The notes under the pieces are model-generated. The model made no database searches, was not told where the DNA came from, and saw only the letters and a list, made by a program, of their open reading frames with translations. Position numbers and translations under genes: made by a program. Source: Thermoanaerobaculum aquaticum (GTDB lineage Bacteria; Acidobacteriota; UBA4820). From it: a DNA stretch of 57,488 bases. The stretch spans positions 1 to 57,488 of the forward strand of contig DYJZ01000002.1 of assembly GCA_020722885.1 (NCBI GenBank), read 5' to 3'. Positions 1,759 through 57,421 of the stretch are shown here, one piece after another (position 1 is the stretch's first letter; each line of letters begins with the position of its first letter).

Positions 1759-1847
1759 TCTTCCTCCTTTAATAAAATACTATCACATTTTAAATCCAAC
1801 AGTAAAGACTTTTCAATACTTTCTTTTAGACAGTCTCATAACTTATA

Positions 1848-2157
1848 ATAATGTCCTTACTTAAACTAATTAGAAATGTTCTTAAAAATGGCAGTGGAAA
1901 AACCGCAAAAAGATTAAATAACTTTTGCAAACCTCCATTGAACCACCCCTCTAAGGCTTTCCGTTTCGGCTTTGTGAGCAAGAGGGAGATTGCTTCGCAA
2001 GACAAGGCTGCGAAGAAGCACTCGCAATGACAGGCTACTTCTACTCGCAATGACACGGTCAGTGAGCACTCGCAACGGAGTATTTCTAAATAGTCCTGAC
2101 ATTTTTCCTCTTGACTTCTTAGATGGTTCTGTCAAAATTTGTTTTGGACAGAGTGAT
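1848..2157 (+). repeat. modular intergenic repeat, modules M2+M3(+extra unit)+M4 (MITE-like)
   Basis: Collinear with 52346-52636 apart from a ~25-nt extra CTCGCAATGACA unit (2035-2058). The ends form a degenerate inverted repeat: AATGTCC..TTAGAAATG on the left and CATTTCTAAATAGTCCTGACA on the right. Confidence 0.8.
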
Positions 2158-5925: not shown

Positions 5926-6474
5926 GTGGTGCTTCTAATATTATTTTCTTATATTGCCCATCAGAAAAGAAAGAAGGAGGTAGTAGAAATTGTTTCAAGA
6001 GGTGGAATAGACTTATTAATTCAGCAACTAAAGGAAAAAGCAAATGAAGAAACGATAGAGGCTCCGGGAAAAACAAATGACCCAAGAGCTGCCGATGCTC
6101 TAATTGATTTTGTCAACTCAAAGGACATAAAAGATGAAGACGATAGTTATTTCTTTACACTGGGATTGAATGCTCTGGGTAAAATAGGAAATGACAGAGC
6201 AATTGATTTTCTGGTTTCCACGCTTGGTCTAAATAATGATATGTTTGTTCGTGATTATGCAGCCTGCGTATTACACAACATCGCTCATGAAAAGGGTATA
6301 AAGATTTTTAAAGCGGTAAAACCACTCGTTACACTTTTAGTGGATGCTAAAAATAGTAACTATCGGCTCGAATGGACGGAAGGGGCATTAAACGCAATAA
6401 CTGGAGAAAAATTTGGTAAAAACATTGATAAATGGGAAAAATATATTGCTGAAAATAGAGATAAATTGGAATAA
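5926..6474 (+). CDS. HEAT-repeat (PBS-lyase-like) protein with N-terminal hydrophobic segment
   Basis: Repeated NDPRAADALIDFV / GNDRAIDFLVSTL type motifs. GTG start is uncertain. Confidence 0.55.
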   Translation: MVLLILFSYIAHQKRKKEVVEIVSRGGIDLLIQQLKEKANEETIEAPGKTNDPRAADALIDFVNSKDIKDEDDSYFFTLGLNALGKIGNDRAIDFLVSTLGLNNDMFVRDYAACVLHNIAHEKGIKIFKAVKPLVTLLVDAKNSNYRLEWTEGALNAITGEKFGKNIDKWEKYIAENRDKLE

Positions 6475-6488
6475 CACTGCTTTCGAGG

Positions 6489-6715
6489 ATAATTTGAAAG
6501 CAGTAACGGAATCCTGAAAAATTAAGGATTCTGGACGGGTTTTAGGGAGGCTTGAAAACGAGGCTCACTGTTTTTATGCCTGTATATGTTATTATGCTGT
6601 CCAACTACTCCTCTAAAAGGTTCGGCTGATAGGTTTCGGGTTCAATGGGCGGTGTTTGAAAAAACCAGTCGAGCCATTCCCATAAGTTCCCTGTCAAAGA
6701 TATATGATAATGTCC
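6489..6715 (+). repeat. repeat module M1: 227-nt conserved structured-RNA candidate
   Basis: About 92% identical (manual alignment) to 52130-52355. Helices are 6509-6515/6525-6531, 6619-6624/6670-6675 and 6632-6636/6662-6666. Confidence 0.8.
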
Positions 6716-6768
6716 TAAAGCGATTTACTTTGAGGAATACACAAACGAAGTTATTTTACTTTGTTTGA

Positions 6769-6846
6769 AAAGAGGGAGATTGCTTCGTAAGAGAAGGCTC
6801 CGAAGATGGGCTCGCAATGACAGGTTACGTCTGCTCGCAATGACAC
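6769..6846 (+). repeat. REP-like hairpin unit M3 plus second CTCGCAATGACA unit
   Basis: AGATTGCTTCG-N-GGGCTCGCAATGACAGG, then a repeated GCTCGCAATGACAC. Same unit as at 1987, 52486 and 57325, and inverted at 17959. Confidence 0.75.
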
Positions 6847-17758: not shown

Positions 17759-17804
17759 AAAATCCTCCTTAAAGTAATTCTTTCCGCTATTCGCAAAGAG
17801 TAAT

Positions 17805-17833
17805 AATATAACCTTGCAAAGAAAAGTTGTCAA
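17805..17833 (-). promoter_or_regulatory. sigma-70-type promoter of the ferredoxin gene
   Basis: On the minus strand TTGACA-17 nt-TATATT, about 40 nt upstream of the start codon. Confidence 0.5.
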
Positions 17834-17910
17834 GTATTTGTAGAAGTCAATAACATACTGGATTTTTTAAAGGAGGTAGGAGATGATAAGTGGGGAGTGG
17901 TAAGAAAAAA

Positions 17911-17959
17911 CGCAGTCTTTGCGAGCACTTCTACGCAGCATCTTCCTGCGAAGCAATCT
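17911..17959 (-). repeat. REP-like hairpin unit M3, inverted copy
   Basis: The reverse complement reads AGATTGCTTCGCAGGAAGATGCTGCGTAGAAGTGCTCGCAAAGACTGCG. Confidence 0.7.
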
Positions 17960-17989
17960 TTCTTTTTTTTGACAGGTTCTACTAAGTTA

Positions 17990-18295
17990 GCCTTCGAGGG
18001 CTAAACAAACGAATCCGTCTTCCTTTTTGCCCCATCTTTCGCAGCAGCAATTCACAAACCGCCCTGTTTAAACAAATGCCCTTTGCGTAGATGTTTATCC
18101 CTGCCTGAAGTCGGTTTTCACTTTACGGGTGCAAGGAGGGGGGTGCTTCGTCGTCACCGCCCACCCTTCAAGCATAGCAATTAAGGATATTTAGGCTGAA
18201 GCTACCGCCGATTTTGACCAACTCCTTATCGCTGCATGCCATTTTGACCTACTTTTAGAAAACCTTAATGGGAAAAAAAGAAAGGATGGTAGTAG
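17990..18295. ncRNA. candidate structured non-coding RNA / repeat-associated GC-rich segment
   Basis: About 300 nt with no ORF, clearly GC-richer than its flanks. Local helices include CTTCAAGC/GCTGAAG and GGTG-N9-CACC. A G6 tract is present. Confidence 0.3.
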
Positions 18296-18307
18296 GTTTT
18301 GAAAGAG

Positions 18308-18897
18308 CTAATTTCTTTCCTCAAAAGTCTTTTCTATCTCCTGCTTGGTCACTTTTCTGATGTCAAAGCCGACTTTCGATGCAAGGTCCTGGTAAAAAGC
18401 CTCATCCTGATATTCGTGTTTTCCTTGCATTTCCCTCATAATCTCATAAAGTTTTTCTTTGCCCAGTTTTTTTCAAAGAAAATGAAGATACCTAAAGACG
18501 CATTATATCCATCAGATATTCTTTTCCAGGCGGTGATTTTCTCATCTTTGCTCATCTTTTTAGATTTTTTTGTTAAATCATAAGATTCAATAGGTGGCGA
18601 AAAAGAAGTGAAAACATATTCTCTTATTTTATCATCGCATAAGGCTTCTATTGCCTTTGCCTTATCTAAATATGAGTCTTTACAGCGTATGCCAACAGTA
18701 CACTCAGCAACGGTATACTCAGTATAGCAGGCGCACCCCTCTTCAAACCATCCGGTGGAACAAATTGACATTCTGCTTCGCATAGCGGGATAGTCTAAAA
18801 GAGAATGCATAAGCTCGTGTGCTTCAGTAAATATTTCACAAAGGATTGTTTCAGTCGCGTCATCGGACGAGTTTTTATCAATGAGAACAAGAGAGGT
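18308..18897 (-). pseudogene. decayed peptidase-MA-like (HExxH) metalloprotease gene
   Basis: TEAHELMH ... GWFEEGCACY (HExxH plus a downstream EG-x-A-x-Y) lies only ~27 codons after an in-frame TAA. The C-terminal part continues in another frame after an A7 run near 18467-18473. Confidence 0.5.
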
Positions 18898-18959
18898 CTC
18901 CGTTTAGGATGATAGGTCAACATATTTATATCTTTCCGGCTTTTTTTCGAAAGAGAGTA

Positions 18960-19280
18960 TTATAAGTTGAAAGTTTCTTTTGGAAATTTTTTTTGCATCA
19001 TTTTCTCCTCAATGGTGATCATCTGATAATACGCTTCTTTGATCTTTTCAAGATCAAAAGAAACATCACCTGAGGAAAGGATTTTCAGCGTTATATCTTC
19101 TATAATTATGCCGGAATAGATTTCTGAACATCTTTTCGAAATATGGTTATTGATATTTACGGTGGGTCCTTTTGCTTCCATGTTTCCACCACTAATAAAT
19201 CTTAAAGAACAATCGTAGAAAAAGAGGATAAATCCGACTGTTATTAGACAAATTAGAGAACGTGTCCGTTTCATCATCAT
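18960..19280 (-). CDS. hypothetical protein with N-terminal signal/anchor (possibly the N-terminal fragment of the decayed protease gene)
   Basis: 106-aa ORF with a hydrophobic N-terminus, MMMKRTRSLICLITVGFILFF. Contains an A8 run. Confidence 0.3.
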   Translation of the reverse strand: MMMKRTRSLICLITVGFILFFYDCSLRFISGGNMEAKGPTVNINNHISKRCSEIYSGIIIEDITLKILSSGDVSFDLEKIKEAYYQMITIEEKMMQKKFPKETFNL

Positions 19281-19599
19281 CTCCTTTTAAGAAGTGAAAA
19301 GAGCCATTCGCTCGTACAAATTGTAATGGCGCGGGAGAAATGCGCAATTTTTGTTTAGATCTCATTAAATCGAGAATCTGCTTTATTCAAAGTTTGCTGC
19401 AGTTAAGTCCCTGTCACTGACTATAACCGTGACAAACGTCTCTGCTTCGCTTCTAAGTTCTTCGCTTCACTTCTTTCTTTGGCTTTTGGCGGAGGTTTTT
19501 GGAAAGTTTCTAACTTCCATTGCTTTGAAATTGTGTGTAATTGGCACTTTTCTGGGGGGGGTAAAATAAAAGAAAATGCCTTCAGCAAAGAACCTTCAA

Positions 19600-19770
19600 T
19601 TTTTTTAACAGCAACCAAAAAATTCACCAAAAACCCTCCACTCTAATAATATGCAAAAAAAATGTTTGTCAATCACATCCTTTGACTACCGCGACCATGA
19701 AAGGCTAAGGTCAGGAAAAGTAAAGAAACAGGGCTGTGGAAGCAATTCCCACAGCCTCTACTAATTTTTC
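19600..19770 (+). repeat. decayed copy of the 43.6-kb repeat variant
   Basis: AAAGGCTAAGGTCAGGAAAAGTAAAGAAACAGGGCTGTGGAAGCAATTCCCACAGCCTCTACTAA parallels 43716-43822. Includes an 8-bp hairpin, GGCTGTGG (19732-19739) with CCACAGCC (19749-19756). Confidence 0.6.
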
Positions 19771-19927
19771 TTTCATTGATAGCATAAATAAGTTTTTTTC
19801 GCTCCTTTTTCACCCTCAGAAAAGTCTTATGTGTTTCTGAACTTTTGCACCTGAAATGGCAAAGTACTTATCTAATTGAATGTTGACATAAGTTTTTTTT
19901 TAATCTATTATTAAGTTTGGGGAAAGA

Positions 19928-21736
19928 ATGACTAACTTGAGGGAGGAAATGAAAAAGTATATTCTTGCAGTTTACGACAAGGAAATACCAAGACTTCTGC
20001 TTCCACCGAGCTGGGAGCTCATTCAATTGGAAGATTATTCAAAAGGGATGAAGCATATTGCTTCTTATTGCCCATATTTTCTTGTGCTTAAAAGTAACAT
20101 CAAAAATGAGAAAGCAACAGACTTTTTAAAAGAGGTAGAACAGAGATTTGGAGTTATTCCTCCATCTGTAATTCTTGATTTACAAAAAGAAGAAGAATTA
20201 AATACAGAAGAGAAAGCGTCCCTCGGAATTGTGGCAGGTTTTATGAAAGAATCAAGTTTTAAGACAATTATGAAGGAAATCGAGCCACTTCTTAAGGAAC
20301 CTCCTCTTCCGAGGATGAACATTCTTGAGTTTATTGCAACCTTAATGAATGAAAAAATGAGCGGGATATATCAATTCCAGATTTCTTCTTCCCGTTTCGA
20401 AATTATTTCCAGAGAAGGAAAAATTGAATGTATTGTGGATGAGGTTTTTCGAAATACCTACAGAGACCTGCTTTCTCAGGGAGGTCTCGAACTTCCTCCA
20501 ATTGAAACTAATATTATTAAAGACATCTTTAATATTGATGCCAGAGGGTATATTTACCTGGACAAAATCAAAGCCATCAAAGAATTCGCTATTGAAAAGA
20601 CCTTATCAGAATTTCCGCTTGATCAAAATTACAAATTTGTCAAAACTTCTGATGAATATCCATTAGGGAATACTATCGGAATTGAATGCAGTGAAATCTT
20701 GAGAAAACTCTCAACAAAAATTCCTCTGCAAACATTGGAAATTCTGAAAAAGTGCTCTTTTAAAAAATCCGTTTTGCTCGAAGAACTTACAAAATGCGTT
20801 CCTCTTTTTCCGGAAGAGGGATATCTTCTTCATATACTTGAGGGCGAACTATCTTTTAATGAAATTAAAACAATATTAGGTACTGATGAGCCAGCTCTTT
20901 TACAAAAACTTTATTTTCTTTTTATTCTTGGTTTTCTTTCAACCAATCCCGGTGGAGGAATTCCACCACGAATAAAGTATCTTAAAGAAGGAATTCTTTC
21001 AAGAGAAAAATTAATTTCCTCACAATCATTATCCATCGAGCAGTTTGCCCAGACACTTCAAATACCTGGTTTAAGTCCATACAGGGTTTTAGGTATTGAT
21101 GAAAAATCAACTCTGGTGGAAGCAATTGATGCTTTCAGAAATCTTGAACATCTTTTTAGACCGGAAGAATTAGACATTTTCGTTCAAAAAAAATATTCAA
21201 AACACCTGACTTTTATAAGAAGTAAGCTGACTGAAGCAATCCTCCTTATTGAATCTTTTCACTTCAATGGAAAACATAAACAGCAGGAAGCTGCTGTTTC
21301 AAAAATGGAAAAGATTGAAAGAACGGGAAGCGGAAAAACAGAATCCCAGAAGATTGAAGAAGGAAGAAAAAAGGAAGCAGAGCGCCTTTTCTTAATAGCA
21401 AAAGAATATTTTGAAACAGACCATATCTATGAGGCTGGACAGTATCTTAAAACAGCTTTGATTTACGATCCATTCTCTGCCCCCTGCAGACATCTTCTTG
21501 CTTTAACATACCTTAAGATGAAAGACATGAAATCAAAATATATGGCTGAAAGGGAATTAAAGCTTGCAATCGAAAATGACCCCTGGACTGCAAAATATAT
21601 ACTTGACCTTGCCCGTCTATACATTGAAGTAGATATGCCAAACAGAGCAAAATCCCTCTTAGAACAAGCGCAGAGAATAGACCCCACCAATCCCGAAATA
21701 AAAACTGTTAAAGACCTTCTCAAAAAAACCAACTAA
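19928..21736 (+). CDS. hypothetical multidomain protein with degenerate J-like segment and C-terminal TPR repeats
   Basis: 602 aa. SPYRVLGIDEKSTLVEAIDAFRNLEHLFRPE resembles a J domain but has no HPD. The C-terminal ~130 aa is TPR-like. Confidence 0.6.
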   Translation: MTNLREEMKKYILAVYDKEIPRLLLPPSWELIQLEDYSKGMKHIASYCPYFLVLKSNIKNEKATDFLKEVEQRFGVIPPSVILDLQKEEELNTEEKASLGIVAGFMKESSFKTIMKEIEPLLKEPPLPRMNILEFIATLMNEKMSGIYQFQISSSRFEIISREGKIECIVDEVFRNTYRDLLSQGGLELPPIETNIIKDIFNIDARGYIYLDKIKAIKEFAIEKTLSEFPLDQNYKFVKTSDEYPLGNTIGIECSEILRKLSTKIPLQTLEILKKCSFKKSVLLEELTKCVPLFPEEGYLLHILEGELSFNEIKTILGTDEPALLQKLYFLFILGFLSTNPGGGIPPRIKYLKEGILSREKLISSQSLSIEQFAQTLQIPGLSPYRVLGIDEKSTLVEAIDAFRNLEHLFRPEELDIFVQKKYSKHLTFIRSKLTEAILLIESFHFNGKHKQQEAAVSKMEKIERTGSGKTESQKIEEGRKKEAERLFLIAKEYFETDHIYEAGQYLKTALIYDPFSAPCRHLLALTYLKMKDMKSKYMAERELKLAIENDPWTAKYILDLARLYIEVDMPNRAKSLLEQAQRIDPTNPEIKTVKDLLKKTN

Positions 21737-43472: not shown

Positions 43473-43523
43473 AACTCCTCCTTCAAAAATTAAAAAATTG
43501 CCTGTCTTACGACAAGCCTTATA

Positions 43524-43552
43524 ATAATATAACTTTTTTTTGCAATTGTCAA
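43524..43552 (-). promoter_or_regulatory. sigma-70-type promoter of the rpsL (str) operon
   Basis: Minus strand TTGACA-17 nt-TATTAT, about 45 nt upstream of the TTG start. Confidence 0.55.
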
Positions 43553-43577
43553 GTCTCTCTACAAGAAGTGTCATAAC

Positions 43578-43881
43578 TATATGATAATGTCCTTATTTAA
43601 ACTAATTAAAAATGTCCCCTAAAATGGAAGTGCGAAAGCCGTAAAAAGAATCAATAAGTCCTATAAGCCACCATTGACCACCCCTCAATATCTTTCCGTT
43701 TGGCTCCGGGAACAAAAGGTTAAGGAGTGGAAAATAAAGAAACAAGGCTAAAGAAATTGACGAACTGTGGAAAACTCTTGCATAGTTTCCCACAATTCCC
43801 ACAGCCTCTACTAACTAAACTTATAACAGGACATTTTTAGTTAGTTAATTTAGGGGACATTTCTAATAAATAGTCTTGACA
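43578..43881 (+). mobile_element. MITE-like repeat variant with 19-nt terminal inverted repeats
   Basis: ATTAAAAATGTCCCCTAAA (43605-43623) matches the reverse complement of 43849-43867 at 18 of 19 positions. Outer ends are homologous to the M2 left end (TATATGATAATGTCCTTA) and the M4 right end (CATTTCTAA..ATAGTCTTGACA). Confidence 0.65.
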
Positions 43882-43947
43882 AAGAGAATTTCCGGGCTTG
43901 AAATTTATTTACTAAAATAATACAATTCCCTTTTTTGGGAGGTAGAT

Positions 43948-51983: not shown

Positions 51984-52129
51984 CTAAACTCAGCCTTTGC
52001 TATTATACCAGATTTTTTAGTAGTCAAGGATCTTTATGAAATTCTCACTTAAAAATTTATTCCTATAAAAACCATTTCATCACTTACGAGTTTTCTATAA
52101 ACTTTTATAAAAAACCACTGCTGTCCAAA

Positions 52130-52355
52130 ATAATTTGAAAGCTGAAACGGAATCCTGAAAAATTGAGGGTTCTGGACGGGTTTTAGGGAGGCTTGAAAAC
52201 GAGGCTCACTGTTTTTATGCCTGTATATGTCATTATGCTCTCCAATTAGTTCTCAAAAGGCTCGGCTGATAGGTTTCGGGTTCAATGGGCGGTGTTTGAA
52301 AAAACCTGTCGAGCCATTCCATAAGTCCTTTGTCAAAGCTATATGATAATGTCCT
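52130..52355 (+). repeat. repeat module M1 (second copy)
   Basis: Matches 6489-6715. Helices at 52150-52156/52166-52172 and 52259-52264/52310-52315. Confidence 0.8.
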
Positions 52356-52636
52356 TACTTAAACTAATTAGAAATGTTCTTAAAAAATGGCAAAAGAAAA
52401 ACCGCAAAAAGATTAAATAATTTTTGCAAACCTCCATTGAACCACCCCTCTAAGGCTTTCCGTTTCAGCTTTGTGAGTAAGAGGGAGATTGCATCGCCTG
52501 AGGAGGATTCGAAAGAGCACTCGCAATGACAGGGTTAGTGAGCACTCGCAACGGAGCATTTCTAAATAGTCTTGACATTTTTCCCCTTGACTTCTTAGAT
52601 GGTTCTGTCAAAATTTATTTTGGACAGATGTGATAA
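52346..52636 (+). repeat. repeat modules M2+M3+M4 (MITE-like), contiguous with M1
   Basis: Collinear with 1848-2157. Confidence 0.8.
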
Positions 52637-52726
52637 AAAACTATTCTTAAAAAAATCCCACTTGACATTCCTTTTGATTATAAAAAAAATGGTATATAAT
52701 TTCTTTTCTGGAAAGGAGAGGAGAAA

Positions 52727-53011
52727 ATGACCAAAACAGAAATGATTAAAAAACTTGCCGAAAAAACGGGCGTTCCTAAAAAAGAGGTAAAGAAAATAAT
52801 TGAAACTCTCTTCAGACCCGGAAAAGGCATCATCTCTATAACATTAAAGCAGGGAGATAAAATCACAATTTCTGGATTTGGAACTTTTTATCGTAGAGAA
52901 AGAAGCGAAAGAACCGCAAGAAATCCCAAAAATGGAAAGCAGGTTTCAGTTCCAAAGAGGCTTTACCCTGCTTTTAAACCTGCAAAAACTTTAAAAGATT
53001 CTTTCAAATAG
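52727..53011 (+). CDS. hup: HU-family DNA-binding protein
   Basis: 94 aa. GFGTFYRRERSERTARNPKNG arm motif. GGAGAGGAG RBS. Confidence 0.93.
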   Translation: MTKTEMIKKLAEKTGVPKKEVKKIIETLFRPGKGIISITLKQGDKITISGFGTFYRRERSERTARNPKNGKQVSVPKRLYPAFKPAKTLKDSFK

Positions 53012-57246: not shown

Positions 57247-57324
57247 CATATCTCTCTAAAACAACACGATTCTCTGGCACTTCTACGAAAGATAAATCAA
57301 AAAGGAAGTAACCATCTCTGTGGA

Positions 57325-57421
57325 AGATTGCTTCGCAAGCGAAGGCTTCGAAGGAGCACTCGCAATGACAGCACTCGAGTTGACGGGTAAGGCATCGGAG
57401 CATTTCTAAATAGTTTTGACA
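57325..57421 (+). repeat. partial repeat: M3 hairpin unit plus M4 fragment
   Basis: AGATTGCTTCGCAAGCGAAGGCTTCGAAGGAGCACTCGCAATGACAG ... GGAGCATTTCTAAATAGTTTTGACA. Confidence 0.75.

Follow-up and report, generated by a model that had tools for sequence, protein, structure and literature searches.

The spacer upstream of the HU gene in this stretch of Thermoanaerobaculum aquaticum DNA (57,488 nt, hereafter the window) holds about half a kilobase of sequence whose parts recur in other intergenic regions of the same stretch, and the question it raises is whether these repeats are mobile DNA or a reusable RNA or regulatory cassette. A sequence-only reading had left both options standing and had divided the repeat into four recurring modules, M1 to M4. 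The explanation that fits best, with a probability of roughly 0.85, is that 52116-52632 is a 517-bp miniature inverted-repeat transposable element (MITE) inside which is nested a second MITE derived from an insertion sequence (IS) of the IS1202/ISNCY family. The repeats are probably ordinary selfish DNA and no novel RNA or regulatory system. Among the core genes of the window are a ribosomal protein operon, EF-G, purH, HU and tRNA-Val, and the closest annotated homologues carry the label Acidobacteria/Acidobacteriota. L001 and L002, two further assemblies from this species, show 99.9% identity over the region.

Two probable nested elements upstream of HU

Read along the forward strand, the composite and its flanks consist of the following parts, where L numbers denote comparison contigs, TIR a terminal inverted repeat, and IRL and IRR the left and right inverted repeats of an IS.

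52107..52115, no strand: left 9-bp target-site duplication ATAAAAAAC, read directly, with the identical 9-mer beyond the other end
52116..52141, + strand: outer left TIR (CACTGCTGTCCAAAATAATTTGAAAG), from local alignment against the reverse complement of 52605-52632
52116..52330, + strand: outer left arm (the earlier M1), 90.7% identical to the copy at 6470-6716
52331..52577, + strand: inner MITE, 247 bp (M2, M3 and the first half of M4), its ends matching IRL/IRR of the elements in L132, L139, L144 and L131
52331..52379, + strand: inner left inverted repeat and subterminal repeat (TGTCAAAGCTATATGATAATGTCC ... TAGAAATGTTC), 80-82% identical to positions 1-49 of IS_L139 and IS_L131
52486..52530, + strand: M3 hairpin unit (AGATTGCATCG ... 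CTCGCAATGAC), from a motif scan; its arms recur across phyla
52553..52577, + strand: inner right inverted repeat (GGAGCATTTCTAAATAGTCTTGACA), matching the IRR of L139, L144 and L132 (...GGACATTTCTATTTAGTCTTGACA)
52578..52632, + strand: outer right arm (second half of M4), 95% identical to 2102-2152, with the right TIR at 52605-52632
52633..52641, no strand: right 9-bp target-site duplication ATAAAAAAC, read directly

The TIRs and the target duplication set the borders at 52116-52632, not at 52130-52636 as first proposed. The sequence in which M1 and M2 seemed to overlap (52331-52355) is in fact the left terminal repeat of the inner element, and what had been taken for a single module, M4, is the inner right terminal repeat (to 52577) followed by the outer right arm (52578-52632). 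The composite had been judged to lack a credible ORF, and indeed the longest ORF in 52100-52650 has 51 aa.

The outer TIRs are 26-28 bp long and imperfect, with 22/26 identities and a 2-nt gap between the left repeat and the reverse complement of 52605-52632 (CACATCTGTCCAAAATAAATTTTGACAG); their alignment scores 16.5 against 10.6 +/- 1.5 for shuffled sequences. They are flanked by the perfect 9-bp duplication; for any given position and spacing in the window, the background frequency of an exact 9-mer is about 2e-5. TIRs and a flanking duplication occur together, so the composite appears to have inserted as a whole 517-bp unit, and its empty site, reconstructed in silico, reads ...CTTTTATAAAAAACTATTCTT... 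Homology to the 6470 copy begins a few nucleotides upstream of the outer left TIR, at 52111.

M1 and the outer right arm had no match outside the species among the fetched loci and the plasmid, viral and metagenome contigs. Exact scans gave nothing either, with an M1 23-mer in metagenome and viral contigs or with a 26-mer from the M2 junction in genome contigs; a scan of viral contigs for the outer TIR and a distant-mode search of plasmids with the composite were equally empty. M1 had been considered as a decayed transposase gene or an inverted copy of M2, but neither blastx nor tblastx nor local alignment gave anything above noise.

Copies in the window

A sensitive blastn of 52051-52730 against the whole window matched 52111-52355 to 6470-6716 (90.7% over 247 nt, E 5e-85), 52342-52635 to 1844-2158 (85.5% over 317 nt, E 4e-84), 52331-52465 to 43569-43701 (77% over 135 nt, E 2e-24), 52483-52577 to 57322-57421 (75%, E 1.5e-13) and 52479-52533 to 6770-6824 (E 2.5e-8), with an inverted match at 17909-17966 (E 4.5e-4). 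A separate repeat search of the window returned the same repeats. The other copies, with their extents as finally drawn, are these.

1834..2155, + strand: second copy, inner MITE (1834-2101) and outer right arm (2102-2155), without the outer left arm
6475..6846, + strand: third copy, decayed, in which the outer left arm (6475-6691) is followed by 25 nt left over from the inner left repeat (6692-6716), by 53 nt of unrelated sequence and by M3 with a half-unit (6770-6846)
17909..17966, - strand: solo M3 unit, inverted, with no IS ends nearby
19700..19765, + strand: fragment of the 3' non-coding region of the IS, aligning with 43715-43815 with an internal deletion
43569..43881, + strand: clean 313-bp inner MITE, the IS 5' end fused to the 3' end, without M3 and without outer arms
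57318..57421, + strand: 5'-truncated inner MITE, consisting of M3 and the right inverted repeat

The sites listed by the sequence-only reading fall in six intergenic regions and not in the seven or more that it counted; the fragment at 19700-19765, absent from its list, supplies the seventh, and shares the exact 15-mer TTCCCACAGCCTCTA with the 43715-43815 region in a motif scan. Together the repeats measure about 1.75 kb of the 57.5 kb, or 3% of the window, somewhat below the 2 kb first estimated. The four modules do recur, as claimed, although they are parts of nested MITEs and not independent units, and their apparent shuffling, deletion and duplication is better explained by one element nested in another, with truncations and internal deletions afterwards. 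In the alignment of the copies, the inner MITE at 1834-2101 has a degenerate left end, TCTCA, and an additional CTCGCAATGAC half-unit. A long target duplication considered for this copy turned out to be a loose resemblance between 1821-1833 and 2139-2151. The junction of M1 with the inner left end recurs at 6475-6716 and that of the inner right end with the right arm at 1834-2155; the nesting would therefore predate those copies.

The inner element and its autonomous relatives

M2 and M4 begin with sequences that form an inverted repeat (left TGTCAWAACTATATGATAATGTCC...TAGAAATGTYC, right GGAGCATTTCTAAATAGTCTTGACA), such that the TIRs of the inner element are TGTCAWAACTATATGATAATGTCC and the reverse complement of GGAGCATTTCTAAATAGTCTTGACA. 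The termini are TGTCA on the left and TGACA on the right in all full copies, apart from the TCTCA of the 1834 copy, and a motif scan places the same right end at 2101, 43881 and 57421. The inner MITE at 52331-52577 aligns with the copies at 1834-2101 and 43569-43881; all three have the ends and the M2 body in common, and M3 stands in the first two where the 43569 copy has the 3' hairpin of the IS itself.

The left-end motif was found in 21 metagenome contigs. Complete elements of about 1.45-1.76 kb comprise the left end, a leader of about 100 nt, an ORF of 420-442 aa, a 3' non-coding part and a right end in ...GGACATTTCTATTTAGTCTTGACA; the motif GGACATTTCTA is repeated subterminally at both ends, and the flanks vary between copies right up to TGTCA. 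Transposase-bearing elements with the ends of the inner MITE were present in L129, L131, L132, L139 and L144. A relative whose neighbouring gene is 81% identical at the protein level (L124) has the same left end and the start of an ORF about 95 nt further on, where the contig stops. L137 and L138 carry a 137-bp MITE with these ends. The 43569-43881 copy matches positions 1-57, 1420-1455 and 1478-1552 of IS_L132, that is, its 5' and 3' ends, and is therefore a classic internal-deletion MITE. An autonomous partner thus exists for the inner element, in metagenome contigs; for the outer element none was found among the sequences searched.

The ORF of L132 scored 388.9 bits on the NCBIfam model NF033594, "ISNCY family transposase" (cut-off 250), an assignment that belongs to the autonomous relatives and not to any sequence of the window. 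Its protein has the Pfam domains HTH_32 and rve, shares 37-38% identity with ISNCY transposases annotated on plasmids of Klebsiella, and contains the motifs QMDGS, IDDAT, YTDYND and GRVERENGTLQ, which make up a D..DD..D..E arrangement with Q at +7. The IS1202 family, formerly the IS1202 group of ISNCY and divided into the subgroups IS1202, ISTde1 and ISAba32, is described as having termini that begin with TGT, a DDE triad with two additional D residues between its first and second D, and a Q at position +7 from the E (10.1101/2022.12.17.520857). Likeness to it lies, in the autonomous relatives, in the NF033594-level transposase with an N-terminal HTH and an rve-type DDE domain, the additional D residues and the Q, the size of about 1.5-1.8 kb and the 5'-TGT termini. 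Its ISTde1 subgroup has been reported from Acidobacteria (10.1101/2022.12.17.520857), the label carried by the closest annotated homologues of the window. Differences are the identity of about 38% to ISKpn21-like transposases, the missing transposase in the window copies, and the direct repeats, reported as 5-6, 15-17 or 27-28 bp in the family, where members without direct repeats also exist (10.1101/2022.12.17.520857), against 0-3 bp in the elements checked here. The sequence-only reading could match the repeats to no family, and this no longer holds for M2 and M4, whose ends are those of IS of the ISNCY/IS1202 family.

In many of the contigs L129-L149 the sequence breaks off within the IS, 100-120 nt inward from its left end, as happens at repeats. 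The full-length copy in L139 has, once oriented, an M3-type hairpin (GTCATTGCGAGGGAGTGAAACGACCGAAGCAATCTC) at about 1600-1640, downstream of the transposase stop codon but before the right end, and in the orientation opposite to that in the window MITEs, which suggests an independent capture of the hairpin, or an insertion by it.

Presence and absence in related genomes

A close contig, L155, whose Iso_dh is 99% identical to that of the window, lacks the 313-bp copy of 43569-43881, and the left breakpoint falls exactly at TGTCA. The rpsL-Iso_dh spacer measures 224 bp in L155 and 475 bp in the window, with flanks 96.6-98.6% identical. Upstream of HU the spacer is 92 bp in L156 (HU 87% identical), 43 bp in L157 (73%) and 744 bp in the window, and conservation with these relatives is confined to the last 55 nt or so. 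Relatives at the genus level, with about 150 kb of distinct sequence between them, gave no module and no M3 motif apart from the one autonomous IS end in L124. At the HU site no second strain was found, the matches being to the same genome only.

Within the 61 nt that L155 has in place of the element (its positions 673-733) lie a perfect palindrome, GTGATTTTATCAAAATCAC, and the promoter-like TTGACC-16-GAGAAT; they may be an operator and a second Iso_dh promoter, lost in the window strain.

The gene on the far side of the spacers 43473-43947 and 51984-52726 differs in every relative examined (L124, L126, L127, L151, L152, L154, L156 and L157), and the spacers that bear elements coincide with synteny breakpoints against these relatives, which may reflect repeat-mediated rearrangement. 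Contigs from independent assemblies end inside the repeats: L150 does so at window position 1877, and L003 starts near 52606. The elements thus fragment short-read assemblies of the lineage.

Several results weigh against two nested MITEs. No target duplication of the IS1202 type was seen at the inner elements, where adjacent repeats were 0-3 bp in the seven elements checked (the check covered 1834, 43569 and 52331 and the elements in L137, L139 and L141), such that a proper duplication was obtained for the outer element only. The window holds no autonomous copy and no transposase remnant by tblastn or blastx, as had been noted from the start of the modules. One of 300 shuffles exceeded the score of the outer TIRs, reaching 20. 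The outer element is a single complete copy with no parent found and no match beyond the species, and M1 occurs in two copies, so the word family has little under it there. Finally, the 43569 element replaces 61 nt of L155, which is neither a clean empty site nor a simple insertion. On the other side stand the outer TIRs with their perfect 9-bp duplication, the autonomous partner of the inner element, the absence in L155 at one site and the absence in relatives, and with these the first of the two original options, a non-autonomous mobile element, is the one supported.

Regulation, RNA or duplication as alternatives

The inner right end terminates in an outward-facing TTGACA, a perfect -35 hexamer, and one could regard the modules as a reusable promoter or regulatory cassette under selection, with this hexamer driving or modulating the gene downstream. 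All four right ends (2101, 43881, 52577 and 57421) face the start of the next + strand gene; at 43881 a spacing of 17 nt separates the TTGACA from a downstream TGAAAT, which is TTTCTA in L155; and a near-palindrome, CTGTCAAAATTTATTTTGGACAG, is present in the outer right arm together with the promoter-like TTGACT-16-CAAAAT. However, the best promoter-like sites for both genes lie downstream of the inserts, TTGAAA-17-TACAAT at 43898-43926 for Iso_dh and TTGACA-17 from 52662 for HU; the former is unchanged in the insert-less L155, and the 55 nt or so before the HU start codon are kept in L156. These look like native sites, kept where the insert is absent. The hybrid TTGACA/TGAAAT promoter at 43881 was considered and rejected, as the pair was not called in the promoter scan and a better native site lies downstream. 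Moreover, three of the four sites are divergent spacers, in which either orientation faces a gene; the modules are absent from relatives, several copies are truncated, and a -35 that faces outwards from a terminal repeat often arises as a by-product of IS ends. We consider the cassette improbable, and the terminal TTGACA is read as a feature of the insertion sequence. If two IS ends were abutted, TTGACA would stand 14 + n nt from the GATAAT of the left end, comparable to the junction promoters of circle-forming IS; circles have been reported for ISKpn21 (10.1101/2022.12.17.520857).

That M1 and/or M2 are structured small RNA genes, and the repeats paralogous RNA genes, is more improbable still. 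Several local stems of M1 absorb the differences between its copies as G-U/G-C pairs, with five one-sided changes and none that breaks a pair, and a 15-nt perfect inverted repeat joins 52138-52152 with 52458-52472; the longer inverted similarity of M1 and M2 is, however, within noise. At the gathering threshold Rfam found only tRNA-Val in the whole window, and in the region, at E values up to 10, the best hit had 16.7 bits against a threshold of 46. The fold z-scores of M1 (-0.83 on the + strand, -0.25 on the - strand) are no better than those of shuffled sequence, an alifold of its two copies gave compensatory changes in 0/64 predicted pairs, and the scan called no terminator-like site. M1 and M2 also occur apart, M2 opens with about 60 nt that form a transposase gene's left end and leader, and neither module is present in relatives. 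With this, and with the native promoter-like sites above, the RNA or regulatory option of the sequence-only reading finds no support.

Copying of an intergenic segment by segmental duplication and recombination, with the transposon-like ends a coincidence, would account for the junctions of M1 with the inner element and of the inner element with the right arm being common to several sites, for the partial copies without a recognisable second end and for the synteny breakpoints at copy-bearing spacers, and it is about as improbable as the RNA genes, given the TIRs and perfect 9-bp flanking duplication at the full copy, the inner ends identical to those of transposase-bearing elements with different flanks in unrelated contigs, and the left breakpoint exactly at TGTCA against L155.

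A proposed history of the elements

Under the nested-MITE explanation, the inner element would be an internal-deletion derivative of an ISNCY/IS1202-family IS that has lost the transposase gene, and it would therefore move only if a full-length copy elsewhere supplied the DDE transposase in trans. It keeps both TIRs and their subterminal GGACATTTCTA-type repeats, where the transposase probably binds, and its interior would carry one M3 unit, a hairpin that also occurs solo. The outer element, already bearing the inner one, would have inserted upstream of the HU promoter region, duplicating the 9-bp target ATAAAAAAC. The nested unit would have been copied to at least two more places, near 1834 and 6475, with parts lost afterwards, and the inner element would have moved alone to 43569 and 57318. 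The order of these events is the one that the shared junctions suggest, and both elements are probably selfish passengers without a selected function for the host.

Well-known IS-derived MITEs are Correia/NEMIS in Neisseria, RUP in Streptococcus pneumoniae and the IS630- and IS5-derived MITEs of cyanobacteria. The elements described here resemble such MITEs in being small (137-517 bp) and non-coding, in having TIRs that match a full-length IS, in their multiple intergenic copies, nesting and truncation, and in a presence that varies between closely related contigs; unlike them, the inner copies lack a clear target duplication and the outer element lacks a known parent. We know of no described MITE whose parent belongs to the ISNCY/IS1202 family. 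The IS1202 family would gain a non-autonomous branch, and the composite would be a case of a MITE inside a MITE moved as one unit. MITE debris makes up about 3% of this core-gene stretch, and an annotation should mask it and not call it as ORFs or RNAs. The repeats break other assemblies of the species and may drive rearrangement in a poorly known, uncultured lineage.

The M3 hairpin

M3 is the only unusual part of the composite and the sole lead of broader interest. Its recurrence was confirmed, with units at 1987-2031, 6777-6821, 17915-17959 (- strand), 52486-52530 and 57325-57369; as a hairpin it is weak in the window, where DNA fold z-scores range from +0.45 to -1.35. A scan of a one-genome-per-species collection for the arms AGATTGCTTCG...CTCGCAATGAC, 5-35 nt apart, found at least 120 stretches (L004-L123) in many bacterial phyla, among them isolates (Pedobacter, Chryseobacterium, Hymenobacter, Sporomusa, Chloroflexus) and metagenome-assembled genomes labelled Patescibacteria, Omnitrophota, Planctomycetota and Atribacterota. 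The 192 distinct instances in the examined loci have a common 5-bp base stem, ATTGC/GCAAT, in which nine of nine double changes were compensatory (T-A to C-G), beside 22 single mismatches and 3 G-U pairs, all counted as instances and not as independent events. The inner stem differs freely from one instance to the next, and in about one third of them it is clearly stable.

With respect to the strand of the genes the units show no bias (25 against 31), and they are commoner in convergent than in divergent spacers (21 vs 8). All-against-all clustering of the ORFs of the 120 loci found no gene family that recurs within 600 nt of the hairpins. GIY-YIG nuclease genes, considered as a lead, lie a few nucleotides from M3-type hairpins in two of the 120 loci (L066 297-584 and L027 5075-5365), too rarely for an association; another small GIY-YIG gene, in L151 (617-925), lies upstream of Iso_dh with no hairpin there. 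End motifs of the IS1202 type accompany M3 elsewhere in 2/120 loci, consistent with chance. Rfam gave no match for M3 in eight hairpin-rich loci, and literature searches by sequence or encoded peptides found no relevant paper for the repeats and none with the M3 sequence.

The closest known counterparts are the repetitive extragenic palindromes of proteobacteria (REP), their mosaics (BIME) and REPINs, which are mobilised by RAYT transposases; RAYT genes are usually single-copy and need not adjoin REP sequences. M3 is like these in being a short imperfect palindrome, intergenic, often in clusters of alternating orientation (L007, L062, L083), in favouring convergent over divergent spacers and in lacking strand bias. 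A given REP sequence is confined to one species or genus; the arms of M3, in contrast, are identical 11-mers across many phyla. M3 has no GTAG 5' motif, and neither a Y1 transposase nor another gene family recurs within 600 nt of it in the 120 loci. We treat M3 as a REP-like passenger. A more ambitious and rather doubtful possibility is that M3 is not mere MITE debris but belongs to a hairpin family not yet described, with 11-nt arms preserved to the letter across many phyla, the MITEs here having spread one unit of it. If this were true, the arms would imply a conserved trans-acting partner that recognises them, or an exceptionally promiscuous mobile hairpin.

The spacer around the solo M3 unit

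The inverted solo M3 unit adjoins a non-coding stretch of about 340 nt (17960-18300) with a G+C content above that of its surroundings, and Rfam had no match in 17800-19930. Further along, 18299-19280 contains short overlapping ORFs on both strands that resemble decayed genes. The 17.5-19.9 kb spacer, which also contains the IS 3' fragment at 19700-19765, seems to be a junkyard.

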